Source of the DNA: Thermoanaerobaculia bacterium
Lineage (GTDB): Bacteria > Acidobacteriota > Thermoanaerobaculia > Gp7-AA8
Length of the DNA stretch: 30,210 bases
Direction: 5' to 3'
Assembly (NCBI GenBank): GCA_035525015.1
Contig: DATLFC010000038.1
Span: 1-30,210 of the forward strand
Under the pieces are notes generated by a model. The model was not told where the DNA came from and did not search any database. It was given only the letters and a program-made list of their open reading frames with translations. Positions 883 to 30,210 of the stretch are shown piece by piece (within the stretch, counting starts at the first letter, position 1; every line of letters begins with the position of its first letter). The position numbers were made by a program, and so were the translations under genes.

Positions 883-1772
883 TCGACGCCTGGCTTCGCG
901 AGCGGCGCACGCTCGTCGAGCAGACTCTCGACCGCCATCTCCCGCCCGCCGATACGCCCCCCGCCGTCATTCACGAAGCGATGCGCTACGCCGTCCTCGG
1001 TGGGGGGAAACGGGTGCGGCCCATCCTCGCCATCGCCGCCGCCGAGGCGGTCGGCGCCGACGCGACGCCGCTGCTGCAGGCCTTCGCGGCGCTCGAGCTG
1101 ATTCACACGTATTCACTCGTGCACGATGACCTGCCGGCTCTCGACGACGACGAGCTGCGCCGCGGAAGGAAAACGACCCACGTGGTGTACGGCGAGGCGA
1201 TGGGGATCCTGGCCGGCGACGCGCTGCTGACCGAGGCCTTCTCCTGGCTGTCGAAACCGATCGAGGGAGTGCCGGCGGAGCGGCAGCTTCGCGCGGTCGC
1301 GCTCGTGGCTCGGGCCGTCGATTCGACGGGGATGATCGGGGGACAGGTGGCCGATCTGGAGGCAACGGGGGCGGGTCAGGAGACCCGCGCGCCGAGAGAG
1401 GCGCTGGAGTTCATTCATCGGAACAAGACGGGGAAGCTGATCACGGCCTCGGTCCTTCTGGGTGGGACGCTCGGCGGAGCTACGGAGAAGCAGCTCGGCG
1501 CGCTCGAGCGCTACGGCGTTGCGCTGGGGCTGGCGTTCCAGATCGTCGACGATCTCCTCGACCAGGAGGAGTCTTCGGCGACACTCGGCAAGACTGCCGG
1601 GAAGGATGCGGCGCAGGGGAAGCTGACCTACCCGGCGGTGATGGGGGTCGAGGCGGCCCGGGCCGAGCTTGCTTCCCTGCTGGAAGGCGCTCTCGGCAAC
1701 GCTGGTATGATCGCCGGCCCCGTGAACTATCTGGGGGACATCGCGCGTTTCATCTGCGATCGCCGTTCTTAG
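879..1772 (+). CDS. ispA: polyprenyl (farnesyl/geranylgeranyl) diphosphate synthase
   Basis: Two aspartate-rich motifs (LVHDDLPALDDDELRRG and FQIVDDLLD) typical of trans-prenyltransferases. It sits between xseB and dxs as in the conserved xseB-ispA-dxs block. Confidence 0.9.
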   Translation: MIDAWLRERRTLVEQTLDRHLPPADTPPAVIHEAMRYAVLGGGKRVRPILAIAAAEAVGADATPLLQAFAALELIHTYSLVHDDLPALDDDELRRGRKTTHVVYGEAMGILAGDALLTEAFSWLSKPIEGVPAERQLRAVALVARAVDSTGMIGGQVADLEATGAGQETRAPREALEFIHRNKTGKLITASVLLGGTLGGATEKQLGALERYGVALGLAFQIVDDLLDQEESSATLGKTAGKDAAQGKLTYPAVMGVEAARAELASLLEGALGNAGMIAGPVNYLGDIARFICDRRS

Positions 1773-1779
1773 GACGCCC

Positions 1780-3705
1780 ATGACCAGAAGACTGCTCGAC
1801 AAGATCAATTCCCCGCTCGACCTGCGGAAACTCGACCGCGAACAGCTCCCGCAGGTGGCGGAGGAGATCCGCGAGCTGATCATCGACGTCGTCTCGCGCG
1901 TCGGCGGCCATTTCGGCGGCAACCTCGGCATCGTCGAGCTGACGCTGGCCCTCCACTACGTCTACCAGACGCCGCGCGACCAGATCGTCTTCGACACCGG
2001 GCATCAGAGCTATCCGCACAAGCTGATCACCGGCCGCCGCGACACGTTTCACACCATCCGTCAGCACAACGGGATCTCCGGCTTCTGCAAACGGGAGGAG
2101 TCGGAGTACGACGTCTTCAACGCGGGGCATGCCTCGACCTCGATCTCGGCCGCTCTCGGTGTCGCGGTGGCACGCGACTTCCGGAAAGAGGACTACAACG
2201 TCGTGGCCGTGATCGGCGACGGGGCGCTCTCAGGCGGGCTGGCGCTGGAAGGTCTGAACCAGGCGGGGCATCTGAAGCGGAAGCTGCTGATCGTCCTCAA
2301 CGACAACGACATGTCGATCTCGACGAACGTCGGCGCCATGTCGGGGTATCTGAACTCGATCATCAAAGGGCAGCGCTACAACCAGGCCAAGGATCTGGCC
2401 AAGGGAGTCATGGACCGCATTCCGCTGATCGGCGGCAAGCTCCACGGCCTGGCCTCCGAGGTGGAGGAGGTCCTGAAGCACATGGTCGTCCCCGGCACGC
2501 TGTTCGAGGAGCTGGGCTTCAAATACCTCGGGCCGTTCGACGGACACGACCTCGATCACCTCATCGATCTGTTCGAGGAGCAGAAGGACTACGACGGTCC
2601 GCTCCTCATTCACGTCATCACGAAGAAGGGAAAGGGCTACGTCCCGGCGGAGGACAAACCGATCTGGTCGCACGGGGTAACGCCGTTCGACATTCCGTCC
2701 GGCGACGTGAAGAAGTCGGACAAGCCGGCGCCGCCGACGTACACCGCCGTCTTCTCGGAGACGCTGATCGGGCTGGCAAAGAAAGATCCGAAGATCGTGG
2801 CCATTACCGCGGCGATGCCGGAGGGCACCGGCCTCGACAAGTTCGCGAAGGCACATCCGGGCCGAATGTTCGACGTCGGCATCGCCGAGGAACATGCGGT
2901 GACGTTTTCCGGCGGAATGGCGACGCAGGGGATGAAACCGATCGCGGCGATCTACTCGACGTTCCTGCAGCGGGCCTTCGATCAGGTGTTTCACGACGTC
3001 ACGATCATGGATCTGCCGGTGGTGTTCGCGCTCGATCGCGGCGGCATCGCCGGCGCGGATGGGCCGACGCACCACGGCATCTATGACATGGCCTACCTGC
3101 GGATCTTTCCGAACATGGTCTGCATGGCGCCGAAGGACGAGAACGAGCTGCGGCACATGCTCAAGACCGCGTTCGAGACGGGACATCCGACGTCGCTGCG
3201 CTATCCGCGCGGCAACGGCGTGGGCGTGCCGCTCGATGCGGAGGTCCGTTCGTTACCGGTCGGGAAGGGTGAAGTGATGCGCGAGGGGTCCGCCGGCGCG
3301 ATCTTCGCCATCGGGAACGAAGTCTGGCCGGCCGTCCACGCCGCGGAGGAGCTGGCGAAGGAAGGGATCAAGGTCGCCGTCATCAACGCGCGGTTCATCA
3401 AACCGCTCGACGACGAGCTGATCCGCCGCTACTGCACGCCGGGCGCGCACGTGATCACGGTCGAGGAAGGATCGCTGGCCGGCGGGTTCGGCTCCGCGGT
3501 GATGGAGCGTGTCGTCGAGCTCGGGATCGAAGGGGTGAAGTTCCACCGGATCGGCATCCCCGACGAGTACGTGCACCACGGCACGCAGGACGTGCTGCGC
3601 GCGCAATACGATCTGCACACCGAGGGGATCGCCCGCCGGGTCCGCGAGTTCCTGGCAGGGGAAGCCGGTAACGAGCGTCCGCGCGCCGTGTCATTCCGAG
3701 CGTAG
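1780..3705 (+). CDS. dxs: 1-deoxy-D-xylulose-5-phosphate synthase
   Basis: 641-aa transketolase-like protein with the Dxs N-terminus (LLDKINSPLDLRKL), a TPP-binding motif (GDGALSGG...NDN) and a C-terminal transketolase fold. ATG at 1780, 8 nt after the ispA stop. Confidence 0.95.
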   Translation: MTRRLLDKINSPLDLRKLDREQLPQVAEEIRELIIDVVSRVGGHFGGNLGIVELTLALHYVYQTPRDQIVFDTGHQSYPHKLITGRRDTFHTIRQHNGISGFCKREESEYDVFNAGHASTSISAALGVAVARDFRKEDYNVVAVIGDGALSGGLALEGLNQAGHLKRKLLIVLNDNDMSISTNVGAMSGYLNSIIKGQRYNQAKDLAKGVMDRIPLIGGKLHGLASEVEEVLKHMVVPGTLFEELGFKYLGPFDGHDLDHLIDLFEEQKDYDGPLLIHVITKKGKGYVPAEDKPIWSHGVTPFDIPSGDVKKSDKPAPPTYTAVFSETLIGLAKKDPKIVAITAAMPEGTGLDKFAKAHPGRMFDVGIAEEHAVTFSGGMATQGMKPIAAIYSTFLQRAFDQVFHDVTIMDLPVVFALDRGGIAGADGPTHHGIYDMAYLRIFPNMVCMAPKDENELRHMLKTAFETGHPTSLRYPRGNGVGVPLDAEVRSLPVGKGEVMREGSAGAIFAIGNEVWPAVHAAEELAKEGIKVAVINARFIKPLDDELIRRYCTPGAHVITVEEGSLAGGFGSAVMERVVELGIEGVKFHRIGIPDEYVHHGTQDVLRAQYDLHTEGIARRVREFLAGEAGNERPRAVSFRA

Positions 3706-3764
3706 CGAGGAACCCCCTGACGCAGAAGATCCTTCACCTGCTTCGCGGCTCAGGATGACACGGA
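3688..3764. repeat. REP-like palindromic element, copy A (embeds dxs stop and tlyA start)
   Basis: Left arm GTGTCATTCCGAGCG (contains the dxs TAG). Right arm CGCGGCTCAGGATGACACGG (contains the tlyA ATG). Confidence 0.6.
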
Positions 3765-4495
3765 AAACACGCCTCGACGTCGCTCTCGTCGAGCGCGGCC
3801 TCGTCGAGACGCGCGCGAAGGCGCAGTCGCTGATCATGGCCCGCCGCATCCTCGTCAACGGCGCGTACGTCGACAAGGCCGGCGCGCCGGTCGCCGCGGA
3901 CGACGAGCTGCGCATCGAGCAGCTCGAGCACCCCTGGGTCGGCCGTGGCGGGATGAAGCTCGACCACGCACTGCGCGAGTTCTCCATCGACGTGCGCGGA
4001 CGGGTCTGCGCCGACATCGGCGCCTCGACGGGCGGCTTCACCGACGTGATGCTGAAGAGCGGAGCGCGGAAGGTGTACGCGATCGACGTCGGCTACGGCC
4101 AGATCGACCAGTCCCTGCGCAACGATCCGCGCGTGGTGAACCGCGAAAAGGTGAACGCGCGGTATCTCACCGCCGCCGACTTCGAGGAACCGCTCGAGTT
4201 CGTCTCCATCGATGTCTCGTTCATCTCCCTGAAGCTGATCCTTCCTGCCGTACGCGAGCTCCTCCGCGGCGAGCTCGTGGCATTGATCAAGCCGCAGTTC
4301 GAGGTCGGCAAGCGCGACGTCGGTAAGGGCGGGATCGTCCGCGACGATGCCAGACGCGCCGCGGCGGTGGAAGCTGTCGCCGCCTTTGCGCGGGAGATCG
4401 GCTTCGAGGTGCGCGGCGTGATCGAGAGTCCGGTCAAAGGGGCCGAGGGGAACGTCGAGTATCTGATGTGGGCCGCTTCAGGCCCGCCTGGCTAA
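3755..4495 (+). CDS. tlyA: TlyA-family rRNA 2'-O-methyltransferase (S4 domain plus FtsJ-like methyltransferase)
   Basis: N-terminal S4 RNA-binding region (RLDVALVERGLVETRAKAQSLI) followed by the AdoMet motif DIGASTGGFTDV. Its start codon lies inside the right arm of REP-like element A. It follows dxs as yqxC does in Bacillus. Confidence 0.85.
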   Translation: MTRKTRLDVALVERGLVETRAKAQSLIMARRILVNGAYVDKAGAPVAADDELRIEQLEHPWVGRGGMKLDHALREFSIDVRGRVCADIGASTGGFTDVMLKSGARKVYAIDVGYGQIDQSLRNDPRVVNREKVNARYLTAADFEEPLEFVSIDVSFISLKLILPAVRELLRGELVALIKPQFEVGKRDVGKGGIVRDDARRAAAVEAVAAFAREIGFEVRGVIESPVKGAEGNVEYLMWAASGPPG

Positions 4496-5326
4496 GTAGT
4501 CCTGCAGCCCCTCCCGCCACGACTCCGGCCGCACGCCGGTCAGCCGCTCGTAGCGCTCGGTCGACAGCACCGAATAGGCGGGCCGTTTCGCCGGCCGCGG
4601 AAACTCCGCCGTCGACACCGGCTTCACCTCGGTGATCGCGCCGCTCTCCTCGACGATGGCCTTCGCGAAGTCGAACCAGCTGCACTCCGGCTCGTCGGCA
4701 TAGTGGACCACGCCGCGAGCCTGCGGGTGGCGGGCCAGCCGGATCACCGCCCTCGCCAGGTGCGGCGTGTACGTCGGCCGTCCCCGCTGATCCTCGACCA
4801 CGCGGAGGGGATCCGTCCCCTTCCGGATCTGATTGCGGATCGCTTCGACGAAGTTCGGCCCGTGGATCCCGAACAGCCACGACGTCCGGACGATCAGGTG
4901 CTGCGTTGCGTGTGCTGCAGCGATCTCGCCGAGGAGCTTCGATTGCCCGTAGGCGGAGATCGGTGACGTCGCATCGTTGATCTCGTACGGCGATCGCTTC
5001 GACCCGTCGAAGACGAAATCGGTCGACATCTGGATGAGCAGCGCGCCGGCCTCATTCGCTGCCTCGGCGAGCAGCTCCACGGCGGAGCCGTTGATTTTGT
5101 TCGCGGCGTGCTCGTTCTGTTCGGCATCATCGACCTTCGTGTACCCCGCGCAGTTGACGATGACGTTCGCCCCCGTCTCCTCTACGGCCGCGGCGACCGT
5201 GCGGCTGTCGGTGATGTCCAGCTCCGCATGGGTGAGGGAACGGAAATCGAGATCCTGCGACAGAAGCTCGTCGCGCAGGTCGACGCCGAACATGCCGCCG
5301 CCGCCGGTGATCAGCCAGCGGCTCAT
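4478..5326 (-). CDS. rfbD: dTDP-4-dehydrorhamnose reductase
   Basis: 282-aa protein with a Rossmann N-terminus (WLITGGGGMFG) and RmlD-like core (NCAGYTKVD...STDFVFDG). Its 3' end overlaps the tlyA 3' end by 18 nt (convergent). Confidence 0.85.
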   Translation of the reverse strand: MSRWLITGGGGMFGVDLRDELLSQDLDFRSLTHAELDITDSRTVAAAVEETGANVIVNCAGYTKVDDAEQNEHAANKINGSAVELLAEAANEAGALLIQMSTDFVFDGSKRSPYEINDATSPISAYGQSKLLGEIAAAHATQHLIVRTSWLFGIHGPNFVEAIRNQIRKGTDPLRVVEDQRGRPTYTPHLARAVIRLARHPQARGVVHYADEPECSWFDFAKAIVEESGAITEVKPVSTAEFPRPAKRPAYSVLSTERYERLTGVRPESWREGLQDYLARRA

Positions 5327-6105
5327 CGGCGCGGCGGACCGCCGCGCGGGTTCACCTGGACACGCACGCCATGGCTCGCCTTCCCAGCGATGAGATTCAT
5401 GACCATGAATGCATAGAGGAGGCGCGCGTTCACTCCGGCCGACAGCGGCGGCGTGTTGACCACATCGGCCAGTGAGCGCCGGCCGTCGACGCGATGGAGC
5501 AGATTCCTCTCATCCTCGTCGAGCACGAGCTCCGGCACCTCGTCATTCGTGCGGCTGATGACCGTGGAGCGCGTTCCGACGCGCGCGAGCAGCTCCTTCG
5601 CGTCGGGCATGTGCCGGACGCCTTCGATGATGGCCTGCGGGATCGGTATGTCGAGCTTGACGAATTCGCGGTGGCGATCGCGTCCCGGAACGAACGAGAC
5701 TTTGCCGCCGTCCCACGAAAACACGGACCAGACGATCTCCTGGATCTGCTCCCGAACCGCTTCCAGCATCCGCTCCGGCTCGAGCACGCGCATCTCGGTC
5801 AGGATCGTCCCCTGCCGTTTGTCCGTCGCCAGGAGACGGCGGACGCTCTCGTCGTACTGCTCCCGGGTGATCAATCCCTCGTTGAGCAGCCGGTCGCCGA
5901 GGGAGTCGCGGACCTGGTTCGAGGTGCCGAAGACGATGTGGCCGCGGTCGAGGAAGATCTCCTTCCGCTCGTTGCCGCGGTGGCAGTCGATCGTCCCTGG
6001 AGCCTTGTGCCGGTAGATGGTGACCAGGATCTCCGGAAGCGAAGTCTGGGTGAGATCGGTTTCGTAGACGGGACGTGGGGCGGCCGGGTCGCTCGGCGGG
6101 GTCAT
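5323..6105 (-). CDS. DUF4388-domain protein (N-terminal DUF4388-like segment; C-terminal half unassigned)
   Basis: The N-terminal segment (DLTQTSLPEILVTIYRHKAPGTIDC...IFLDRGHIVF) matches my recollection of the DUF4388 fold. The ATG at 6103-6105 is preferred over the in-frame TTG at 6111. There is a 4-nt ATGA overlap with rfbD and the gene starts 9 nt after the tatA stop. Confidence 0.55.
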   Translation of the reverse strand: MTPPSDPAAPRPVYETDLTQTSLPEILVTIYRHKAPGTIDCHRGNERKEIFLDRGHIVFGTSNQVRDSLGDRLLNEGLITREQYDESVRRLLATDKRQGTILTEMRVLEPERMLEAVREQIQEIVWSVFSWDGGKVSFVPGRDRHREFVKLDIPIPQAIIEGVRHMPDAKELLARVGTRSTVISRTNDEVPELVLDEDERNLLHRVDGRRSLADVVNTPPLSAGVNARLLYAFMVMNLIAGKASHGVRVQVNPRGGPPRR

Positions 6106-6113
6106 CCGCAAAC

Positions 6114-6326
6114 TCAGGCGTCGAGGCCTTGCGTCTTCTTCTCGTCGACGGCCTTGTCACCTTTGTTGGCCTTGGTGAGCCCGTCACGGAAGTTCGAGAT
6201 GCCCTCGCCGAGGCCCTTGCCGAGCTGCGGCAGACGGGAGGCGCCGAAGATCACCACGACGATGACCAGAATGACGAGAAGCTCAGCCATTCCGAGCCCC
6301 CCTATGAAAAGCATGTGTCCAGACAT
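6114..6326 (-). CDS. tatA: twin-arginine translocase subunit TatA/E
   Basis: 70-aa protein with one N-terminal TM helix (GGLGMAELLVILVIVVVIFG), then an amphipathic helix (LPQLGKGLGEGISNFRDGL) and a charged tail. A GGGAGG Shine-Dalgarno sits 4 nt upstream of the ATG. Confidence 0.8.
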   Translation of the reverse strand: MSGHMLFIGGLGMAELLVILVIVVVIFGASRLPQLGKGLGEGISNFRDGLTKANKGDKAVDEKKTQGLDA

Positions 6327-6353
6327 GAAGCCTCCCGTGGGTAGAACAGACTA

Positions 6354-6420
6354 TCTTGAATGTCATTCCGAGCGCCACCTCCCGCCCAGATTCCTCGCTG
6401 CGCTCGGAATGACTAAGATT
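6354..6420. repeat. REP-like palindromic element, copy B (divergent tatA/uvrD intergenic)
   Basis: Perfect 14-bp inverted repeat GTCATTCCGAGCGC / GCGCTCGGAATGAC with flanking extension, separated by about 24 nt. Confidence 0.65.
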
Positions 6421-6431
6421 CGGCCCCTGAC

Positions 6432-8705
6432 ATGATCGACCTCACAGGATTGAATAACCAGCAGAGAAAGGCTGTGACGCATGGCACCGGTCCCCTGCTC
6501 GTTCTGGCGGGCGCCGGGTCTGGGAAGACCCGGGTCATCACCTACCGGATCGCCTGGCTGATCGGGGAGGGGGGGGTCGCGCCGGCGCGAATTCTGGCCG
6601 TGACCTTCACGAACAAGGCCGCCAGCGAGATGCTGAGCCGGGTGGAGCACCTGGTTCCGCACATCGGGGCCCGTCCCTGGATCGGGACGTTCCACGCGAC
6701 GTCGCTTCGGATGCTGCGGCGCTACGCCGACCGTCTGGGGTACACGAAGTCGTTCGTGGTCTACGACACGGCCGATCAGCTGACGCTGATCCGGCGCTGC
6801 ATGCGCGAGCTGAACGTGAACGACGAGGCGTACCCTCCGCGGGCCGTGCTGACGCGCATCTCGCATGCGAAGAACGAGCTCATCGGGCCGGAGGAGTACG
6901 AGCGGACGAATCTCGACTTCTTCGGCGCGCGCGTGGCGGAGATCTACCGGATGTACCAGAAGCGGCTGCGCGAGTTCGACGCCATGGACTTCGATGACCT
7001 GATCGGCAGGTACGTCGAGCTGCTGGAAAAGAACGAGGACATCCGCGGCGAGTTGCACGAGCGTTTTCAGCACCTGCTCATCGACGAATACCAGGACACG
7101 AATCGCGCGCAGTACGTGCTGATCAAGCTTCTGGCGGGGCCGGAGGGGAATGTGATGGCGGTCGGTGACGAGGACCAGTCCATCTACAGGTTCCGCGGCG
7201 CCGACATCAACAACATCCTGAACTTCGAGAAGGATTTTCCGGGCGCCGAGATCATCAAGCTCGAGCAGAACTATCGCTCGACGGGCAACATCCTCGACGC
7301 CGCCACGGGAGTCGTCGCCAACAACATCGCCCGGAAAGGCAAACGGCTCTACACGGAGTCGGGAAGCGGCGACCCGGTGCGCATCGTGACCTGCAGCAAC
7401 GAGCGGGAAGAGGCGCAGTTCGTCATCGAGAAGATCACCGCGCAGCGTTCACGGATGAAGCTCTCCGACTTCGCGGTGCTCTTCCGGACCAACGCGCAGT
7501 CGCGGCCCTTCGAAGAAGAGCTTCTCCGCGCCAACATCCCCTACACGGTCGTCGGCGGCGTGAAGTTCTACGAGCGGGCCGAGATCAAGGACGTTCTCTC
7601 CTATCTGCGGCTGGCCATCCGGCCGCACGACACGCCGTCGATCGAGCGCGTCATCAACGCCCCCTCGCGTGGCATCGGTGACACGACCGTCAGCGCGCTC
7701 AGCGACGCGGCGACCCAGCAGAACGTGTCGCTCTGGACGGTGATCGAAGGGGATCTGGCTTTTCTGCCGACGCGGGCCTCCAAAGCGGTGCGCGAGTTTC
7801 GCGAGATCGTGCACGATCTGCAGCGCGCCGCCGCCAATCCGCTGCCGGAGCTCCTCGATTACCTGCTCCTCCGCACCGGCTATCGCCGCATGCTGAGTGA
7901 ATCGCGCGACATCCAGGATGAATCGAGGCTGGAGAACATCGACGAGCTCCTCAACTCCGCGCGGGAGTTCGCCGAGCAGAACACCTCCGCGAGCGTGTCC
8001 GACTACCTCGACTCCCTGACGCTCATGTCGGACCTCGACCGCTACGAGTCGCAGAAGGGCGTCACGCTGATGACGCTCCACTCGGCCAAGGGACTGGAGT
8101 TCAAGGTCGTGTTTCTGGCCGGCATGGATGAGGGCATCCTCCCGCACTCGAGCTCGCTCGAGCACCAGGAGGATCTCGAGGAGGAGCGGCGCCTCTGTTA
8201 CGTGGGGATGACGCGGGCTCGGGAGCAGCTCTACTGCATCCATTCGCGCGAGCGGCGGCTGCACGGGAGGTTCCGGGAGCAGTCGCCGTCGCCGTTCCTC
8301 AGCGAGATTCCGGAGGAGGTGAAGGAGGAGGTGGGGATGCGGCGCGCCTCGTGGGCTCCTTCGCGGCCGGCGCGCCCCTCACCCGGCGCGAAGCCCGCCC
8401 TGAGCGGAGCCGAAGGGCGCCACCCTCTCCCCGCTGCGCGGGGCGAGGGGACGGCGGCGGCGGTGGCTTCGTTTTTCGAGGGGTCGGCGGTGCAGTTCGA
8501 TCCCTCGGCGATCCGGCCGGCGGCGAAGAGCGACACGTCGCGGCCCGATCTGAAGCGGGGGCAGCGCGTCCGGCACGAGATGTTCGGCGACGGCACGATT
8601 CTGACAATGGAGGGATCGGGGCCCGACGCGAAGCTGACCGTCTATTTCGAGCGCGCCGGGTCGAAGAAGTTCATCGCCAAATACGCCAAGCTGACCAGGA
8701 TCTGA
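6432..8705 (+). CDS. uvrD: ATP-dependent DNA helicase PcrA/UvrD with an Ala/Pro-rich linker and a C-terminal Tudor-like domain
   Basis: Walker A (LVLAGAGSGKTRVIT) and SF1 helicase motifs (DEYQDTN, LEQNYRST, VTLMTLHSAKGLEF). The low-complexity linker and KRGQRVRHEMFGDGTIL... tail are typical of the PcrA C-terminal domain. Confidence 0.9.
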   Translation: MIDLTGLNNQQRKAVTHGTGPLLVLAGAGSGKTRVITYRIAWLIGEGGVAPARILAVTFTNKAASEMLSRVEHLVPHIGARPWIGTFHATSLRMLRRYADRLGYTKSFVVYDTADQLTLIRRCMRELNVNDEAYPPRAVLTRISHAKNELIGPEEYERTNLDFFGARVAEIYRMYQKRLREFDAMDFDDLIGRYVELLEKNEDIRGELHERFQHLLIDEYQDTNRAQYVLIKLLAGPEGNVMAVGDEDQSIYRFRGADINNILNFEKDFPGAEIIKLEQNYRSTGNILDAATGVVANNIARKGKRLYTESGSGDPVRIVTCSNEREEAQFVIEKITAQRSRMKLSDFAVLFRTNAQSRPFEEELLRANIPYTVVGGVKFYERAEIKDVLSYLRLAIRPHDTPSIERVINAPSRGIGDTTVSALSDAATQQNVSLWTVIEGDLAFLPTRASKAVREFREIVHDLQRAAANPLPELLDYLLLRTGYRRMLSESRDIQDESRLENIDELLNSAREFAEQNTSASVSDYLDSLTLMSDLDRYESQKGVTLMTLHSAKGLEFKVVFLAGMDEGILPHSSSLEHQEDLEEERRLCYVGMTRAREQLYCIHSRERRLHGRFREQSPSPFLSEIPEEVKEEVGMRRASWAPSRPARPSPGAKPALSGAEGRHPLPAARGEGTAAAVASFFEGSAVQFDPSAIRPAAKSDTSRPDLKRGQRVRHEMFGDGTILTMEGSGPDAKLTVYFERAGSKKFIAKYAKLTRI

Positions 8706-19191: not shown

Positions 19192-21594
19192 GTGCCCCGT
19201 TTCCGTCTGCTTCGCGCCCTCCTGATCCTCGCCTGCATGGGCGGGGTGATCTACCTGCTCGCCAGCCTCTACCTGCCGTCGCCGCGGCGGCTGATCTTCG
19301 GCGTCGACAAGAGGACGGGAGAGGTCCGGGTCGTCCGCAGCAACGTGACCTTTCTCCCGCCGCACCGCTTCTACCGCCTCTCGTTCGAGCAGAAGGACGG
19401 CCAGGTGCAGCGCGACGGTCTGGTGCAGATCATGTCGGCGGAAGGTGTGCCGGTGACGCTGACCTACCGGCTGCGGTTCGGCGTGGCGACCGAACAGCTG
19501 TCCGATACGAGCCGGCTGGTCAGCGAGGGGTGGAGCGCCTGGATCCGCGCGCGCGTGGCGGAAGCGATGGCCGCGGTGACGCGGCAGGTTCCGATCGACG
19601 AGCTCCTGTCGCCGACCTCGCAGTTCAATGCGCAGCGCGAGCCGCTGCGGCGGCTGGTGGCCGCGCACCTGGCCCGGAGCGGGCTGAACGTGACGGCGTT
19701 CCACATCGCGCGCATCGAGCCGGACCGCGATGCGCTACTCCGCTACAAGCGCGCGCAGCTCCGCCGCGCCGCGCGCGGCGCTTCCGGCCGCGTGGCGGTG
19801 ATCGGGCTCGACGGGGCCGACTGGGATCTGCTCAGCGAGCTGTCCATCGACGGCCGCATCCCGAACCTCCGAGCGCTGATCCGCGGCGGGACCACGGCGA
19901 CGCTCCAGACGATTCAGCCGACTGTCGCACCGCTCGCATGGACGACCGCGGCCACGGGCCTCCCGGCCGACCGGCACGGGATCTACGACTTCTTCGCCAG
20001 CGGCTCGCCGATCGACGCCTACGCGCGCCGCGCCCCGGCCGTTTGGGAGATCGCCGAAGCCTTCGGGCGCAACTCGCTGGTCGTGAACTGGTGGGCAGCA
20101 TGGCCACCGAGCACGGAAACGATCACCGTGTACGACACGCCGGCGCAGCATCTGCCGGGCGCGATTCACCCCCCGGAGCTCGGACCGCGCGTCGCCAGTG
20201 TGAGCGTGCCCATGGAGACGGTCGGGTACGACCAGGTCCGGCGGTTTCTCAACATCTCGGCCGCGGAATACCAGCAGGCCGTTCAGTCGCGGAACGCGGC
20301 CGATCCGGCCATGGTCATGCGCGAAGTCCTCGCCAAGACCTGGACGGATCACCGCGTCGCGCTCGATCTGTACCAGCAGAAGACGCCGGTCCTCACGATG
20401 ATCCACTACGAGGGAACGGATGTTGTCAATCATCTCGGCGCGCCGTTCCATCCGCCGCAGCGCAGCGGGATCTCCGCATCGGATTATCGGAAGTACTGGC
20501 CGCTCGTGGCGAACTACTACTCGGAGATCGATCGCCTGATCGGCGAGTGGATTCAGGTGCTGTCCGATGACACGACCGTCATCGTCATGTCGGGTTACGG
20601 GTTCCAGTGGGGAAGCGGCAGACCGCGCTCGGCCCCGCAGTCGGGCCAGGCGCTTTCCGATCATCGCAACCCGGGAGTGTTCATCACTTACGGCAATCAT
20701 GTTGCGGCCTCGGGGGCCCGGCGCTCGGTGTCCATCTACGACATCACGCCGGCCATTCTGGCCATCCTCGGTCTGCCGCCGGCCACGGAGATGACCGGCA
20801 GTTTCCCGGAAGGACTCTTCACCGGAATCACCCCCGTCTCCTCGGTGTCGGTAGCCAGCTACAACGAGTACTTCACCGGCCGCCCCATGGCGACGACGCT
20901 GCGGCCCAATCCACAGAAATACCGGCAGACGCTGCAGGTCCTCGGTCACGTGCTCGACACTTCGCCGCAGACGGTCCGTGTGGCCGGAGAGGGCTCGGCG
21001 CCGACGCCCGCGATTCCACCCGAGCGGCGGGGGGCTTACGCCTGGTGGAACAACCGCGGCATCGAGCTGCGCCGCGAGGGAAAGCTGGCCGAGGCGGTCG
21101 ACGCGTTTCAGAAAGCGATCGATCTCAATCCCGATGATCCGACGCCCTATCTGAACATGGCCATGACGCTGTTCGACCGGCAGCATTACACCGCGGCGGA
21201 CAATGTCTTCCTGATGGCGATTCAGAAAGGTCTGCCGAATCCCGAACAGTGGTTCGTCGATTTCGCGGCGCTCTATCGCGAGAGCGACATGGTCACGCGC
21301 GCCATCGCCCTTCTGAACAAAGGGGGAGAACTTCTGCCGCAGTCCTATCTGATCGCGGCCAATCTCGGATCGGCGCTCGCGCAGGCCGACCGGCTGACCG
21401 AAGCGCTGCCGGAGCTGGAGCGAGCCCTCGGCCTCCGTCCCACCTCTTCGATGGCGCTGAACAACCTCGGGCTCTACTACGCGAAGCGCGAGGACTACGC
21501 GCGCGCTCTCGATTACTGGAACCGCTCGCTGAGCATCGATCCGCGCCAGCCGCAGATCAGGGTGGCGGCGGAGGCGGCGCAGTCGCGACTTTGA
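19192..21594 (+). CDS. multidomain membrane protein: N-terminal TM anchor, band-7/SPFH-like domain, alkaline-phosphatase/ENPP-like domain, C-terminal TPR repeats
   Basis: TM helix (LLRALLILACMGGVIYLLASL). The AlkP/type-I phosphodiesterase motif is VIGLDGADWDLL...QPTVAPLAWTTAATGLPADRHGIYDF. The C-terminal TPR repeats include WWNNRGIELRREGKLAEAVDAFQKAIDLNPDDPTPYLNMAM. Confidence 0.65.
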   Translation: MPRFRLLRALLILACMGGVIYLLASLYLPSPRRLIFGVDKRTGEVRVVRSNVTFLPPHRFYRLSFEQKDGQVQRDGLVQIMSAEGVPVTLTYRLRFGVATEQLSDTSRLVSEGWSAWIRARVAEAMAAVTRQVPIDELLSPTSQFNAQREPLRRLVAAHLARSGLNVTAFHIARIEPDRDALLRYKRAQLRRAARGASGRVAVIGLDGADWDLLSELSIDGRIPNLRALIRGGTTATLQTIQPTVAPLAWTTAATGLPADRHGIYDFFASGSPIDAYARRAPAVWEIAEAFGRNSLVVNWWAAWPPSTETITVYDTPAQHLPGAIHPPELGPRVASVSVPMETVGYDQVRRFLNISAAEYQQAVQSRNAADPAMVMREVLAKTWTDHRVALDLYQQKTPVLTMIHYEGTDVVNHLGAPFHPPQRSGISASDYRKYWPLVANYYSEIDRLIGEWIQVLSDDTTVIVMSGYGFQWGSGRPRSAPQSGQALSDHRNPGVFITYGNHVAASGARRSVSIYDITPAILAILGLPPATEMTGSFPEGLFTGITPVSSVSVASYNEYFTGRPMATTLRPNPQKYRQTLQVLGHVLDTSPQTVRVAGEGSAPTPAIPPERRGAYAWWNNRGIELRREGKLAEAVDAFQKAIDLNPDDPTPYLNMAMTLFDRQHYTAADNVFLMAIQKGLPNPEQWFVDFAALYRESDMVTRAIALLNKGGELLPQSYLIAANLGSALAQADRLTEALPELERALGLRPTSSMALNNLGLYYAKREDYARALDYWNRSLSIDPRQPQIRVAAEAAQSRL

Positions 21595-24863: not shown

Positions 24864-25637
24864 CTACAGCCCGACGATGTTGTAGCCGCAATCGACGAAC
24901 ATCACCTCACCGGTGATGCCGGACGACATCGGAGAGATCAGAAAAAGCCCGGCGTTTCCAATCTCTTCGAGCTCCACGTTGCGCCGCATCGGCGCGCGCT
25001 CGGCGTGATGCTTCAGCATGCCGGTGAAACCCCTGATGCCGCGGGCGGCCAGCGTGTTGACCGGGCCGGCGGAGATGGCGTTGACGCGGATGCTGCGCGG
25101 CCCGAGGTTCGCGGCGAGGTAGCGGACCGACGCTTCCAGCGAAGCCTTGGCGACGCCCATCAGGTTGTAGCCTTCCACCGCCTTCTCCGCGCCGTAGTAG
25201 GTGAGGGCGAGGACCGAGCCGCCGCCCGACTTTTCGAGGAGCGGCATCGCCGCTCTGGTGATGGCTACGAGCGAATAGGCGGAGATGTCGTGCGCCGTCT
25301 TGAAGCCTTCGCGGGAAGTGTTGACGAAGTCGTTCTCGAGGTCTTCCCGCGGAGCGAAAGCGACGGAGTGGACGATGCCGTCCAGCTTCCCGAACTCACC
25401 TTCCACGCTGCGGAAGACCGAGTCGATCTCGGCGTCGCTGGTGACGTCGCACGGCAGAATCAGCGAGCCGGGAAGCGTGGTGGCCAGCGCTTCGACGCTC
25501 TCTTTGAGCCGCTCACCCTGGTAGGTGAACGCGAGCCGCATCCCCTCGCGAGACAGCGTCTGTGCGATCGCCCAGGCGATCGAGCGCTTGTTCGCGACTC
25601 CGAAGATGATTCCCGTTCTGCCTTCCAGAAGTGGCAT
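24864..25637 (-). CDS. fabI: enoyl-[acyl-carrier-protein] reductase (NADH)
   Basis: GIIFGVANKRSIAWAIAQ aligns with the FabI N-terminus and the catalytic region is SDR-type (VHSVAFAPRE...YYGAEKAVEGYNLMGVAKASLEA). ATG at 25635-25637. Confidence 0.9.
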   Translation of the reverse strand: MPLLEGRTGIIFGVANKRSIAWAIAQTLSREGMRLAFTYQGERLKESVEALATTLPGSLILPCDVTSDAEIDSVFRSVEGEFGKLDGIVHSVAFAPREDLENDFVNTSREGFKTAHDISAYSLVAITRAAMPLLEKSGGGSVLALTYYGAEKAVEGYNLMGVAKASLEASVRYLAANLGPRSIRVNAISAGPVNTLAARGIRGFTGMLKHHAERAPMRRNVELEEIGNAGLFLISPMSSGITGEVMFVDCGYNIVGL

Positions 25638-25651
25638 CTGTCTCACTCAGA

Positions 25652-26002
25652 TCAGGATGACACCGGAGCGGTCGGCGAGACAACCGTCGAGCCATGCTTG
25701 GCGACCTCTTCCTCCATTCGCCCGGCCATCATCAGAAACAGCATCCGGTAGTCGGCGGCCAGGGAGTAGAAGGGGTGCCCGAACGTGGCCGGCTTGTTGT
25801 GCTCGACGAAGAAGTGCGCGTACCAGGCGAAGCTGTACCCGACCAGCGGCGCGGCCACGAGGAACCAGAGATTCACCGCGAACGCCAGCCCGATCATGAT
25901 CACCGCCAGCACCGAGCCGACCGCGTGCAGCATCCGCGTCCGCGGCCGGGAATGCTGGCGGACGTAGTGCGGCCAGAAGTCTCTGAACGTACGGATCTCC
26001 AT
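25652..26002 (-). CDS. DUF962 (Mpo1-like) membrane protein
   Basis: RTFRDFWPHYVRQH...FAWYAHFFVEHNKPATFGHPFYSLAADYRM matches the DUF962/Mpo1-like family. The ATG at 26000-26002 is preferred over the TTG at 26047. Confidence 0.65.
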   Translation of the reverse strand: MEIRTFRDFWPHYVRQHSRPRTRMLHAVGSVLAVIMIGLAFAVNLWFLVAAPLVGYSFAWYAHFFVEHNKPATFGHPFYSLAADYRMLFLMMAGRMEEEVAKHGSTVVSPTAPVSS

Positions 26003-26067
26003 GGACTGGACGGTCGCGATTCTCCCATACAGGCCGTGGCACTTCAATTGCTGCCGCTGGAGACGGT

Positions 26068-26310
26068 ATGGCGCAGGATTTCGAACAGCTTCTGAAGGAT
26101 ATTTTCGGCGAGCCGCTCGCGCGGCTGAACCAGTTCCAGTCCGACAAGATGCATCAGCTCCAGGCGAAGCTCAGGGAAATCGCACACGAGGCCGTCAAAG
26201 ACGAGCTGAACCGCCTGCATTCCGAAATTGGTGAGCTCCGGACCCGCCTGACTCGGCTGGAAGAGGAGCGGGCCCAGGCCGCGGCGGACAGCGTGGAAAC
26301 GTCGTTCTAG
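26068..26310 (+). CDS. small coiled-coil protein (80 aa), hypothetical
   Basis: A GGAG Shine-Dalgarno sits 5 nt upstream of the ATG. The sequence is heptad-rich (LQAKLREIAHEAVKDELNRLHSEIGELRTRLTRLEEE). GC content is lower than the surroundings. Its stop lies inside a 9-bp hairpin. Confidence 0.55.
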   Translation: MAQDFEQLLKDIFGEPLARLNQFQSDKMHQLQAKLREIAHEAVKDELNRLHSEIGELRTRLTRLEEERAQAAADSVETSF

Positions 26311-26330
26311 GAGTCCCCGAGTCCTAGAAC
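26304..26330. terminator. bidirectional hairpin with both convergent stop codons inside the stems
   Basis: GTTCTAGGA-gtccccgag-TCCTAGAAC has a 9-bp perfect stem. The plus-strand TAG (26308-26310) and minus-strand TAG (26324-26326) lie in the arms. Confidence 0.5.
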
Positions 26331-29300
26331 GCGTGCCCCAGCGTGATCGAGTAGTTGAAGGAGCGGTCGTAGACGCGGCGCTCCAGCGGCCAGCCGATGT
26401 CGATCCGCAGCGGGCCGACCGGTGAGAGATAGCGAATCCCGGCGCCGACGCCGACCCGCAGGTTGTCGAAGTCGATCGCGGTTCCGCTGAAGACGTTGCC
26501 GACGTCGGTGAACACCGCGCCCCCCAGTCTGCTGAAGATCGGGAAGCGGTATTCCGCGTTGAAGATGAACATGCTGTTGCCGCCCAGCGGAGCCAGGGTG
26601 AACTCGCCCGGGTTCTCGTTGATGTCGACGAGCGTCGGTTCGCAGGGCTTGTCGTCGAACGGCACCTGGAAACCGCCGTCGTTGTCGGCGCAGAGCGTTC
26701 CCAGCAGATCGAGCGGATAAGCGCGGTGTGAGGTGTCGCCGCCCGCGGTGAACCGCTCGGCCACGGGGATGAATCGCGATTCGTCGAGGGGGGTGCCGAG
26801 ATTGTCGGCCCGAAGCGGCTGAATGAATCCGAACCTCGCCGAAAGCGCCACGACGCTGCGCGCGGTCACCGGCAGATACCACGCCCCCTGCAGGTACTGC
26901 TTGGCGAAGTGCGCCTCGGCCGAGAAGAGGGGGAACGCGTACTCGACCGACGCGCTGGTGAAGAACCCGCGCTGGGGATCGATGATGTCGTCGCGCTTGT
27001 CCCAGAAGAACGTCGGCGTGATGCTGGAGATCTCGATATCGAGCAGCGAACGGTCGAGTCCGGGAATCACGGCCCCGAACTCCTCGGCATCGCGGCAGAG
27101 TGCGCCGCCGAGGCATTCGGAGATCTTGTACTGATACTGCGCCGACCAGCGTGTGCGCAGGCCGGCCACCTTCGAGGCTTCGATGGAGGTACCGAGCTGG
27201 CGTACGCGCCGGTCGCGCACCGTTCCATCATCCGTCTGAAAGACATTGATCTGGACCGGCACATCGTACGGGCCGATGAACGGCTCGCGATACGTGAGAA
27301 ACGCTTCGCGCTCATCCTGGCTCCAGACGGCTTCCAGTCCGAGGAAGCGCCCGGTGCCGAAGAGATTGCGATGCGCCACCGCTCCGGCCAGTCGCGGCGC
27401 GACGGTGTCGCGGTCCTCGTCATCGTCCAGGCGGTCGTACCGCACACCGACCGATCCGCTGATCGTGAGGTTGCGGCCATCCTCCACCGAAATGACCACG
27501 TCGCGCTCGCTCGGTGAGGTCCCGGCCACGACCGGCTGCACGTCGACCCGCTGGAAAATGCCGAGGCGATAGAGATTCCGCTGTGCCTGGAGGATCGAGG
27601 AGTAGTTGAACGGGTTGTCCCGCTGGAGATTCGACTGGCGGAGGATCACCTCCGAGCTGGTATAGGTGTTTCCCCGGACGATCACCTCATGGACATTGAT
27701 GCGAGGTCCTTCGGCGATCACGTAGCTGACGGTGGCGGAGTTCCTGTCGTCGCTGACGACCACACGCGGTGTAACCTGGACCTCGGCGTTGCCGCGCTCG
27801 GCGTAGAACGTCTGCAGTGCGATGACGTCCTCGCGCACGAGCTGCGGGTTGAGCGGACGGCCGGCCCTGATGCGCAGCGCAGGCAGTTGCTCGGGGGTGA
27901 CCTGCTCCAACCCCTCCACGCCGGCACCGCTCACGATCGTCTGCGGTCCCTCGGTGATCTGGAACTCGATCTTCATCGTGCCGTCAGCGCGTGTGGTGAC
28001 GGCGGGGGACGCCACCGTCGCTTCCGAAAAGCCCTGCAGCCGGTAATACGACTCGAGCGCGTCGCGATCCTCCGACAGCTGTTCGCGCGTGACGCCTGTC
28101 GGCCGGCGAAAAATGCTCGCGATCAGCCGCCGGAATCCGCCGCTCGGCGCGCTGGCCACGACGTCCTCGAGCGCGTTGGCGGAGACCTGACGGTTGCCGC
28201 TGAACGTAACGTCGGTGAGGCGATACCGCTCACCCGGATCGACATGGAACGTGACCGTCCAGACGCCGTCCTTGCGGCGGCTCTCGGTGTCGACGGTGGC
28301 GTTGAAGTAGCCGCGCTGCTGATACGACTCGACCATGTCGTCCGCCGCCCGCGCGATCGCGTCCTCGCTGTATTCCTCGTCGCGCGACCGGAATGGCAGC
28401 TGCCCCCGTACGGCGCTGCGCGGAACGCCCTCGACTTCCACGCGCACCACGGGACCGGCATCGACGCGATACTGAAGTGCGACCGTTCGCGATGCCTCGT
28501 CGTAAAGGTGGGTGACCAGCTCGACCTCGCCGCGGCGGTGGTCGCGTTCGAACAGCAATCTCCTGATCCGGTCGACGTCCTCCCGCGCGGATGGAAGCTG
28601 GAACTGTACTCCTGGTTTCTGGCGCATCCGGCTGATGAGCTCTTCCTCGGTGAACGGCGCCAGGTTTCCTTCCAGACCGACGCTGCCGACCCGCGCCTCC
28701 GGTCCGGCGTTGACATGGAAGATGACTTCGGCGCGGTTCTGCTGGCGGACGAATCGCGTCTCCGGATCGACGGTGGCCTCGAGGTAACCGTAGTTGCGCA
28801 GCTCCTCCTGGATGTCGCGCGCTGTATCGTCGACCGCATTCAGCGACAGCACCTGACCGACACGCACGCCGATCCGCCTCTCGGCACGCCGCTGGTTCCC
28901 CCCGGTGACGCCCGCGACGTCGATGTCGCCGATGCGGTAGTGAACGGAGAGTACGAACGTCAGGCTGACGCCGTCCGTGACGGGCTCCGCCTCGACGCGG
29001 ATGTCGCGGAAGTGACCGGTGGCGAACAACGCCTTGATGGATTGCTGGATGGCGCGTCTGGTGGCCGCATGGCCGGGCTCAATGGTGACGTACTGGTCGA
29101 TTGCCGATATATCGAACGCGCCATCGGCGTGGATGTTCACCTGCTGCACGACGCTGCCCGGGTCGAGGGGAGTCACGCGCGTTGGCGGCGGCGGCGGCGC
29201 GATGGCCACTTCGCCCGACACGAGCTCCTCGGCCGATCCCAGCGGAAAGATTTCGGCGCCACGGCCGCGGCGACCCCAGGTCCAGTGTCCTCGGTAACGC

Positions 29301-30210
29301 CGCCGGAACCGCCCCTCGGTACGCCACTCACGCTCGCTCTCGTCGCGCGTGATCTGCAGCGTCCAGTCGCGCGTGACCTGCCACTCGATGACCTCACGGC
29401 TCTTGTGGCTGTCGAGGTTGTAGACGACCAGGAGCCGGATTTCGTCCGACACCCGCTTCTCGAACGTCACCTTCGGCCCCCCGCCGGAGCCGGTATCGAG
29501 GAGGCCGGGGTCGTAGGTGAACGAGTCGGCGAACGGCAGGATCCGCTGGCCGAGCGCGGAGAAGAGGCTCTGGTAGAGGAGTGACTGACCGAGGACTCCC
29601 GCGCCCGGGCCGGGCTCGGAGCCCGGTCCGCCCGCAAGCCCGCCGAAGCCGAGGAGCGAGAAGAGCGTGATGTCGCTCGTGGGCGGATCGCTGGTGATGG
29701 AGGGAGTGATGCGATCGAGCGTGCCGGTGATGTTGACGGTCAGATCGACGGGACCGCTCTCCATTTCCGAGATCACGCCGGACACGCGCCCTTCGAGCGT
29801 CACGTCGAAGTAAGGATCGATGCGGAACGGATTCTGGAAGTTGATCGTGCCGCGGACGACGCTGTATTCGATGTTCTGGAACGTGACCTTGCCGCCTTCG
29901 TCGAGCTCCACGTTGCCGAGAATCACCGGGTTGGCGAGTGTGCCCATCACGTCGAGATCGGCACTGCCGGTCACGTCGGCGATGTTGTTGCGCACGGCCA
30001 GTGTCCCCGGCGCGTTGACGTCGATGCGGAGCATGACGTTGTCCTGCCAGGACGCGGGAACGATGGGGACGATGCCGCGACGGGAGAGCACGAGGTTGAC
30101 GATGGACTGCTGCAGGTCGAAGTCGCGCGAGTAGACGGCCCGGGTCACGTTGACCTCACCCTGCGCCAGCATCCGCTCGATCTCGCCGGTCACCTGCAGG
30201 CTGAAGTTGC
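26324..30210 (-). CDS. giant outer-membrane assembly protein (5' end lies outside the window, gene runs off the 3' edge): TamB (DUF490)-like C-terminal region fused in frame to about 7 POTRA repeats and an Omp85 (BamA/TamA) beta-barrel
   Basis: The ORF is open to the window edge. The first ~300 aa end with a TamB C-terminal-like sequence (TGTLDRITPSITSDPPTSDITLFSLLGFGG...VTFEKRVSDEIRLLVVYNLDSHKSREVIEWQVTRDWTLQITRDE). A basic/poly-Pro linker and serial POTRA-like repeats follow. The C-terminus is an Omp85 barrel ending in beta-signal ...ITLGHAF. Confidence 0.75.
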   Translation of the reverse strand, partial: NFSLQVTGEIERMLAQGEVNVTRAVYSRDFDLQQSIVNLVLSRRGIVPIVPASWQDNVMLRIDVNAPGTLAVRNNIADVTGSADLDVMGTLANPVILGNVELDEGGKVTFQNIEYSVVRGTINFQNPFRIDPYFDVTLEGRVSGVISEMESGPVDLTVNITGTLDRITPSITSDPPTSDITLFSLLGFGGLAGGPGSEPGPGAGVLGQSLLYQSLFSALGQRILPFADSFTYDPGLLDTGSGGGPKVTFEKRVSDEIRLLVVYNLDSHKSREVIEWQVTRDWTLQITRDESEREWRTEGRFRRRYRGHWTWGRRGRGAEIFPLGSAEELVSGEVAIAPPPPPTRVTPLDPGSVVQQVNIHADGAFDISAIDQYVTIEPGHAATRRAIQQSIKALFATGHFRDIRVEAEPVTDGVSLTFVLSVHYRIGDIDVAGVTGGNQRRAERRIGVRVGQVLSLNAVDDTARDIQEELRNYGYLEATVDPETRFVRQQNRAEVIFHVNAGPEARVGSVGLEGNLAPFTEEELISRMRQKPGVQFQLPSAREDVDRIRRLLFERDHRRGEVELVTHLYDEASRTVALQYRVDAGPVVRVEVEGVPRSAVRGQLPFRSRDEEYSEDAIARAADDMVESYQQRGYFNATVDTESRRKDGVWTVTFHVDPGERYRLTDVTFSGNRQVSANALEDVVASAPSGGFRRLIASIFRRPTGVTREQLSEDRDALESYYRLQGFSEATVASPAVTTRADGTMKIEFQITEGPQTIVSGAGVEGLEQVTPEQLPALRIRAGRPLNPQLVREDVIALQTFYAERGNAEVQVTPRVVVSDDRNSATVSYVIAEGPRINVHEVIVRGNTYTSSEVILRQSNLQRDNPFNYSSILQAQRNLYRLGIFQRVDVQPVVAGTSPSERDVVISVEDGRNLTISGSVGVRYDRLDDDEDRDTVAPRLAGAVAHRNLFGTGRFLGLEAVWSQDEREAFLTYREPFIGPYDVPVQINVFQTDDGTVRDRRVRQLGTSIEASKVAGLRTRWSAQYQYKISECLGGALCRDAEEFGAVIPGLDRSLLDIEISSITPTFFWDKRDDIIDPQRGFFTSASVEYAFPLFSAEAHFAKQYLQGAWYLPVTARSVVALSARFGFIQPLRADNLGTPLDESRFIPVAERFTAGGDTSHRAYPLDLLGTLCADNDGGFQVPFDDKPCEPTLVDINENPGEFTLAPLGGNSMFIFNAEYRFPIFSRLGGAVFTDVGNVFSGTAIDFDNLRVGVGAGIRYLSPVGPLRIDIGWPLERRVYDRSFNYSITLGHAF

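Follow-up and report, generated by a model that had tools for sequence, protein, structure and literature searches.

We analysed a 30,210-nt stretch of DNA, contig DATLFC010000038.1 (hereafter the window), which is the entire contig of an NCBI metagenome-assembled genome (MAG) labelled Thermoanaerobaculia. On its minus strand, positions 26324-30210 form a single open frame that joins a TamB region to a seven-POTRA Omp85 outer-membrane barrel. This fusion is genuine and evolutionarily fixed, occurring in at least 77 species of the Thermoanaerobaculia lineage (soil Acidobacteria). We propose that the gene probably encodes a single-chain TAM (translocation-and-assembly module), where TamB and its Omp85 partner, separate proteins in E. 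coli, would act as one polypeptide.

Architecture of the fused gene

With codons counted from nt 30208, the minus-strand frame runs stop-free from the window edge to a stop codon at 26324-26326, giving 1294 codons (1294 aa). Its 5′ side is open at the window edge: the 'GTG start' placed at 30193 by an open reading frame (ORF) list is merely the first start-like codon past that edge, and the frame stays open to the contig end. By homology, the window protein (P0001; named 'BamA, partial [Thermoanaerobaculia bacterium]' at NCBI) is short of about 1,110-1,130 N-terminal residues, the inner-membrane anchor included. The features of the fused gene, listed in protein order, are:

29282..30210, minus strand: TamB part (AsmA-like, DUF490), C-terminal 309 residues, from Pfam; the end of unfused TamB corresponds to W309
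29294..29524, minus strand: six short amphipathic beta strands predicted at the TamB end, aa 229-305, from AlphaFold2 (AF2) models and the sequence pattern
29294-29329, minus strand: predicted last TamB strand, EWRTEGRFRRRY, aa 294-305, beta-signal-like, from AF2 models and the sequence pattern
29150..29281, minus strand: linker of 44 aa, aa 310-353, TWGRRGRGAEIFPLGSAEELVSGEVAIAPPPPPTRVTPLDPGSV, from model confidence, third-position GC content (GC3), and the absence of a stop or hydrophobic stretch
27509..29149, minus strand: seven POTRA domains, aa 354 to ~900, from Pfam and AF2
26327..27508, minus strand: Omp85 16-stranded outer-membrane barrel, aa ~901-1294, ending ...ITLGHAF, from Pfam, TIGR03303 and Foldseek
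26324..26326, minus strand: stop codon of the fused gene, from translation

Domain analysis bore out the original prediction, made from the DNA letters alone, of a TamB-like region followed by about seven POTRA-like repeats and a barrel ending in GHAF. The Pfam TamB model (PF04357) matched aa 4-291 at 102.6 bits (cutoff 22.4; E = 3.6e-29), covering 54-368 of its 381 profile positions; this settles the TamB/DUF490-like identity of the N-terminal ~300 aa. POTRA (PF07244) matched seven stretches (E = 3.6e-59) and Omp85 (PF01103) matched aa 948-1294 (E = 3.2e-45). Among the NCBIfam models, the BamA equivalog TIGR03303 scored 383.8 bits, above its cutoff of 297.15, whereas the proteobacterial TamA model NF047950 reached 95.7 bits against a cutoff of 625 and the TamL model scored far under its own.

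The motifs quoted as TamB hallmarks are present in the window protein where they had been located, TGTLDRITPSITSDPP...DITLFSLLGFGG at aa 161-190 and VVYNLDSHKSREVIEWQVTRDWTLQITRDE at aa 260-290. The protein terminates in a beta-signal with a terminal aromatic residue, ...ITLGHAF in the window and ...TLGYAF in most orthologues. The beta-signal of TamB, by comparison, does not lie at a free C-terminus, as 985 further residues follow W309.

An AF2 model of aa 100-1294, with a mean predicted local distance difference test score (pLDDT) of 78.9, places in order the end of the TamB beta-groove, two helices, six strands, a disordered linker, seven POTRA-like units and a 16-strand barrel. The six predicted TamB strands occupy aa 229-233, 246-252, 257-264, 269-277, 282-289 and 294-305; the last would present E, R, E, R, R, R on a charged face and W, T, G, F, R, Y on an aromatic/hydrophobic one. 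The POTRA-like alpha/beta units are mostly beta-alpha-alpha-beta-beta, with pLDDT mostly 85-94. When the TamB end was modelled in isolation, its sole PDB match at a Foldseek probability of 1.00 was 9xdc_B, TamB in the 'TamAB hybrid barrel state', a weak match (E = 3.5e-3; TM-score 0.26); a phmmer search of the TamB part against PDB sequences returned no match. For the Omp85 part, the best Foldseek matches were E. coli BamA in BAM complexes (E = 1e-44), and a PDB profile search gave E-values of 1e-44 to 1e-35 for BamA and 1e-24 to 1e-15 for TamA.

Conservation of the fusion

A homologue search covering 5.8 billion proteins identified dozens of fused homologues with 44-70% identity, from NCBI, JGI, ENA and Logan assemblies, all carrying TamB, POTRA and Omp85 together. 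The closest full-length relatives are 69-70% identical (e.g., P0259, 2,409 aa), and some database entries already bear a double name, 'BamA/...TamB'. We also performed a genome scan of one representative genome per GTDB species, queried with an alignment of the closer homologues (distant fusions were left out as too diverse). This yielded 80 loci, all within Thermoanaerobaculia/Acidobacteriota, including 'gp7' MAGs, Candidatus Gilichinskyi gelida, the closed 6.6-Mb chromosome OY970284.1 and several Mb-scale contigs, in assemblies made by different programs.

At 77 of these loci, a single frame runs from the TamB end into POTRA1 without meeting a stop; the remaining three contigs stop before the junction, and none of the loci is split there. 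The fusion is thus a fixture of related genomes rather than a sequencing or assembly error, and the assembly artefact was rejected as an explanation on this count.

The complete ORF was recovered in 56 loci (median 2,417 aa). A strong N-terminal transmembrane segment (mean hydropathy >1.8 over 19 residues) is present in 53 of them, within the conserved context RRGPMWGCLK...GGGWWYLG, and the anchor helix of these complete orthologues looks uncleaved. The expectation that the full protein would exceed 2000 aa therefore holds, complete orthologues measuring 2,400-2,450 aa with an N-terminal membrane anchor and an N-terminal region of DUF748/YhdP-like similarity. P0138, a complete representative of 2,415 aa, comprises the transmembrane anchor, TamB to residue 1422, the POTRAs and the Omp85 barrel. 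Its PF04357 match extends over profile positions 5-379 of 381, and its matches to DUF748 (43.6 bits; cutoff 50) and YhdP (40.5 bits; cutoff 46) have significant E-values while remaining under the curated cutoffs.

Away from the junction, the gene is frameshifted in a few assemblies, namely L075 (CAWCBB010000004.1), P0034 as compared with P0138, and P0060 together with P0444 (a 528-kb JGI contig). These frameshifted copies, one of them on a Mb-scale MAG contig, resemble homopolymer/indel errors and cause misleading 'TamB only' or 'BamA only' calls.

The linker between TamB and Omp85

Originally placed at about 29140-29290 as a basic/poly-Pro segment of roughly 45 aa, the linker measures 44 aa at 29150-29281, basic at its start, then Pro/Ala-rich, and rich in Ala/Pro/Thr/Gly overall. 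Its GC3 is 0.82 compared with 0.86 for the gene, and both other frames hold stops. AF2 predicts disorder between the TamB end and the POTRAs, with pLDDT <50 over aa 312-346, and POTRA1 begins at V354 or slightly earlier (strand VVQQVNIHA).

No stop, Met or signal peptide opens the Omp85 part, as had been noticed from the sequence alone. The linker is open in frame, no Met occurs between the TamB and Omp85 parts, and neither the window protein nor 51 orthologues have a hydrophobic segment separating TamB from POTRA1. The Omp85 part has lost its own signal peptide. In-frame GTG codons occur at aa 330, 334, 345, 354 and 357, and none precedes a hydrophobic signal sequence. Internal initiation of a separate Omp85 was rejected on this ground, since an internally started product without an export signal would be unable to reach the outer membrane.

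Across 51 genomes, the linker spans 36-68 aa from the RFRRxY motif (median 50) and stays in frame in every case; A/P/T/G make up 51% of it. Sequence conservation is poor, and all length changes are frame-preserving. A weakly conserved xWGxRGR(N/G) stretch follows the fusion point in many orthologues. Because linker length and sequence vary while every indel keeps the frame, this pattern argues for selection to keep the two halves joined.

Split relatives and a second fusion

Some lineages of the class have retained tamB and omp85 as two genes. The unfused TamBs of these sister lineages end in ...ARFRRRYEGHW, their final Trp corresponding to W309 of the window protein. In the JGI contig L001, a tamB of 1,438 aa and a seven-POTRA omp85 of 964 aa overlap at ATGA, and this Omp85 begins with a normal signal peptide. 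A signal peptide is present in the split orthologue P0042. In an NCBI Thermoanaerobaculia MAG (L086), tamB and omp85 overlap by 1 nt, and the same arrangement is found in a Logan contig with the same TamB (L087). Judged from these loci, TamB and Omp85 appear to be coupled 1:1, covalently in the fusion and through adjacent, translationally coupled genes in sister lineages. The simplest history would be that such a translationally coupled pair lost the tamB stop and that a flexible tether took the place of the signal-peptide region.

Split and fused loci also share their surroundings. A gene for an Mpo1-like membrane protein directly follows the Omp85 gene in the split locus L001 and in the fused locus L002 and also lies downstream in the window, and L002 and the window share the full downstream set of small convergent ORF, Mpo1-like gene, short-chain reductase and GluRS. 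In the window, the Mpo1-like (DUF962-type) membrane ORF lies at 25652-26047 (minus strand) and the FabI-type enoyl-ACP reductase at 24864-25646 (minus strand). The neighbourhood downstream of the fusion gene has a lipid-metabolism flavour and contains no skp or lpxD. The small ORF at 26068-26310 (plus strand) encodes 80 aa of coiled-coil-like character and converges on the fusion gene, ending 14 nt from its stop; a 65-aa ORF at the matching position in L002 (6849-7046) hints that this may be a conserved small gene.

The claim that the order TamB then Omp85 is the reverse of the usual one stands only in part. It is reversed relative to the proteobacterial tamA-tamB, but tamB-bamA is known in spirochaetes (Heinz 2015, PMC4494059) and is the order of the fusion's own split relatives. 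As a separate observation, tamB-then-omp85 order seems common outside Proteobacteria; in ENA contig_5212 (L088; 3.15 Mb), from another lineage, the locus at 1008-8091 holds a tamB called in two pieces and, ~830 nt downstream of it, a shorter Omp85 of 696 aa.

In an exhaustive HMMER search of 1.84 billion cluster representatives, the Omp85 part matched more than 100 stand-alone Omp85s of 900-1000 aa at 28-40% identity, with alignments beginning at POTRA1, and fused proteins made up a small minority of the matches. A second fused group was evident in Acidobacteriota (e.g., NLT66542.1), with 22-31% identity, about five POTRAs, a basic linker of 17-24 residues and the same domain order. Its members (P0087, P0091 [the cluster of NLT66542.1], P0097, P0104, P0372, P0398 and P0402) are complete fusions of 2,040-2,250 aa; at least one is labelled Acidobacteria/Acidobacteriota, and an N-terminal anchor is present in the members checked. 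P0087 additionally carries an 80-residue Pro-rich insert ahead of the barrel.

A neighbour-joining tree of the Omp85 parts set the second fused group apart from the main fused clade, with many unfused proteins between them. Because this group is distant and separated by unfused proteins, the fusion arose at least twice, with identical order each time. The omp85 products of the split relatives P0042, P0040 and L086 sit among the basal fused branches, which may hint at repeated fusion or reversion to two genes, or may be noise. The tree is rough and without support values, and is read for no count of fusions or fissions beyond at least two origins.

A putative single-chain TAM

A close counterpart is TamAB of E. 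coli, in which cryo-electron microscopy revealed conserved helices followed by six membrane-embedded TamB strands (PMC13119328). TamA strand 1 pairs there with the C-terminal beta-signal strand of TamB, forming a hybrid barrel that is stable and functional in vivo (PMC13119328; PDB 9XDC). An analogous hybrid barrel has been modelled for Borrelia BamA-TamB, the TamB C-terminal strands completing the BamA barrel (PMC13382580), and the C-terminal domain of Borrelia TamB binds the BamA POTRAs (PMC11361582).

The fusion protein resembles E. coli TamA-TamB in its DUF490 helices, its six predicted amphipathic strands with a beta-signal-like last strand, and its POTRA-bearing Omp85 partner at 1:1, with phospholipid delivery to the outer membrane as the presumed role. 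It differs in being one polypeptide with TamB ahead of Omp85, in contrast to the gene order tamA-tamB, and in having seven POTRAs instead of three and a barrel that is BamA-like by score. Its Omp85 part lacks a signal peptide, and its TamB beta-signal is internal rather than C-terminal. With Borrelia burgdorferi TamB (BB0794) and BamA (BB0795) it shares the order tamB then bamA and a BamA-type Omp85; in Borrelia, however, these are two proteins, and the five-POTRA BamA is the cell's only one.

A further parallel comes from Acidobacteria and Aquificae, in which a TamB-linked extra copy with up to seven POTRAs has been described, in Acidobacteria beside a canonical BamA (Heinz 2015, PMC4494059). 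The fused protein matches this second BamA in its seven-POTRA, BamA-like Omp85, in its linkage to tamB and in its phylum, Acidobacteria. The described copy is a separate gene in a BamA-TamB operon, with no fusion reported (PMC4494059), whereas here tamB comes first. The fused Omp85 probably derives from this TamB-linked second BamA family.

Our proposal of a single-chain TAM, which we regard as probable, draws its mechanism from the TamAB and BamA-TamB literature. The N-terminal helix would stay in the inner membrane while the remaining ~2,350 residues are exported by Sec. The TamB beta-groove would serve as a phospholipid conduit across the periplasm, and the Omp85 barrel would be inserted in the outer membrane via its own ...G[HY]AF beta-signal. 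The six amphipathic TamB strands would dock in cis in the lateral seam of the same chain's barrel, the last strand (...RFRRRY) pairing with barrel strand 1 to produce a stable hybrid barrel.

Geometry appears to permit such docking. A strand running antiparallel to barrel strand 1 terminates at the periplasmic face. The last TamB strand would thus exit there, and the 36-68-residue tether could return from it to the start of POTRA1. In the second fused group, a tether of 17-24 residues would imply that POTRA1 lies near the barrel base. The predicted outcome is a single polypeptide that would span both membranes, a bridge whose two parts are permanently coupled at 1:1. Most likely it would deliver phospholipids in the anterograde direction and help to maintain the outer membrane, as TamAB does.

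Several points weigh against this proposal. All sequence evidence comes from MAGs, with no cultured organism among the sources, and the window lacks the N-terminus, the anchor being deduced from orthologues. Lipid transport by the fused protein is assumed from homology with the E. coli work, and by hidden Markov model (HMM) score the Omp85 part resembles BamA more than TamA. The six TamB strands have a pLDDT of ~80 when modelled with the barrel and 95-97 without it, values that are uninformative on docking.

Alternative explanations

The first rival keeps the fused gene and gives up the fused protein. A polyprotein would be exported as one chain and cut in the linker by a periplasmic protease, releasing mature TamB, ending near ...GHW, and an ordinary Omp85; the fusion would then merely replace the Omp85 signal peptide and ensure 1:1 co-export. 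The disordered, exposed, Pro/Ala/Thr-rich linker fits this reading, as do the coincidence of the fusion point with the native TamB C-terminus, the weakly conserved xWGxRGR(N/G) stretch beyond it and an Omp85 part without its own signal peptide. The family, however, shares no recognisable protease site, and the linker of the second fused group is merely 17-24 residues long and of different sequence. Pro-rich linkers, moreover, are typically protease-resistant tethers. We regard cleavage as unlikely, though it is the main alternative.

A different possibility concerns the identity of the Omp85 part, which could be the cell's only, housekeeping BamA, tethered to the inner membrane through TamB in a unified BAM-TAM machine. 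We rate this as improbable. The TIGR03303 score over its cutoff, with TamA and TamL models far under theirs, the PDB profile matches favouring BamA over TamA, and the NCBI product name all speak for a BamA, and Borrelia pairs its single BamA with TamB. No canonical BamA labelled Thermoanaerobaculia surfaced in word-indexed searches, which are not designed for a 25%-identical paralogue and count as weak evidence. Set against these points, the gene lies outside the bamA-skp-lpxD context, being followed by the small ORF and the Mpo1-like and FabI-type genes, and it has seven POTRAs in place of the canonical five. Seven is the number seen in the TamB-linked second BamA of Acidobacteria, which stands beside a canonical BamA (Heinz 2015, PMC4494059), and it has been argued that a seam filled by TamB strands could not fold substrates (PMC13119328). 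If the reading were true, one trans-envelope polypeptide would both insert outer-membrane proteins and deliver phospholipids, an arrangement near the TamB+BamA configuration that Heinz et al. (2015) proposed as ancestral.

Two candidates for the canonical BamA of the class were considered and set aside. P0100 and P0108, both weak Omp85 hits, stand in bamA-skp-lpxD contexts, but the relatives of P0100 belong to Kiritimatiellia/Lentisphaerae, so that these proteins say nothing about Thermoanaerobaculia. A barrel-only search for a second BamA returned mostly orthologue fragments, and P0089 and P0500 were likewise uninformative.

Docking of the TamB strands could also occur in trans, into the barrel of a neighbouring molecule, giving dimers or chains. 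Flexible linkers do permit domain swapping. Yet a tether of 36-68 residues (up to ~120-230 Å extended) is long enough for cis docking, the 17-24-aa linkers of the second fused group favour an intramolecular arrangement, and TamA and TamB associate 1:1 in E. coli (PMC11014939). We consider docking in trans very unlikely.

Finally, an artefact or separate translation, with a stop or frameshift erased by error or the Omp85 made from an internal start, is effectively refuted: the window is a single MAG contig, some long-read MAGs are frameshifted elsewhere in the gene and one of the linker GTGs has GAGGAG merely 3 nt upstream, but the frame is kept across the junction in 77 of 80 species genomes, linker indels are always multiples of three and an internally initiated product would have no signal peptide.

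Novelty and implications

The suggestion that such a fusion had not been described before needs qualifying. No account of a natural TamB-Omp85 fusion was found in the full-text literature searched, whose coverage is without most subscription journals, and none is described in the TAM evolution paper (PMC4494059) or a 2024 review (PMC11014939). Databases, on the other hand, already hold many such proteins, some of them double-named. The fusion is thus undescribed rather than unseen, and its component families, TamB/DUF490 and BamA-type Omp85, are known.

To our knowledge, few proteins span both membranes as a single chain. The elongated MlaD of Veillonella parvula (PMC10665443) is likewise proposed to bridge the envelope for lipids as one chain, anchored in the inner membrane and ending in an outer-membrane barrel; it belongs to an unrelated family (MCE domain, helical stalk, 10-strand barrel) and is proposed to act as a homo-oligomer and in retrograde transport. 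Chloroplast TIC236-TOC75 offers a parallel of another kind, a TamB homologue in the inner envelope membrane bound to an outer-membrane Omp85 (10.1101/2021.04.25.441383), although there the two are separate eukaryotic proteins that serve protein import.

A fusion of two interacting partners is not in itself astonishing to a specialist; its interest lies in its bearing on the permanence of the hybrid barrel. Two questions are debated in the field: does the TamB-Omp85 hybrid barrel persist as a stable working state or form only transiently, and is the Omp85 partner mainly an anchor for the lipid bridge? A fusion kept by nature in at least 77 species, together with an independent second fusion, is Rosetta-stone-type evidence and indicates a fixed 1:1 unit, in keeping with the recent view of TamB and Omp85 as permanently joined. 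It further indicates that the TamB terminus is periplasmic and within reach of POTRA1, and it shows that the TamB beta-signal strand need not be a free C-terminus. The protein would offer structural work a natural, ready-made single-chain TAM, and it poses a biogenesis puzzle, since a ~260 kDa protein anchored in the inner membrane needs its C-terminal barrel inserted in the outer membrane.

Other features of the window

The other genes of the window are those of an ordinary chromosome, among them DXP synthase, UvrD, GluRS and the FabI-type reductase. In an 800-aa ORF at 19192-21591 (plus strand), an SPFH/Band-7 domain (aa 39-182) is followed by a type I phosphodiesterase/nucleotide pyrophosphatase domain (aa 201-472) and C-terminal TPR repeats, an unusual combination.

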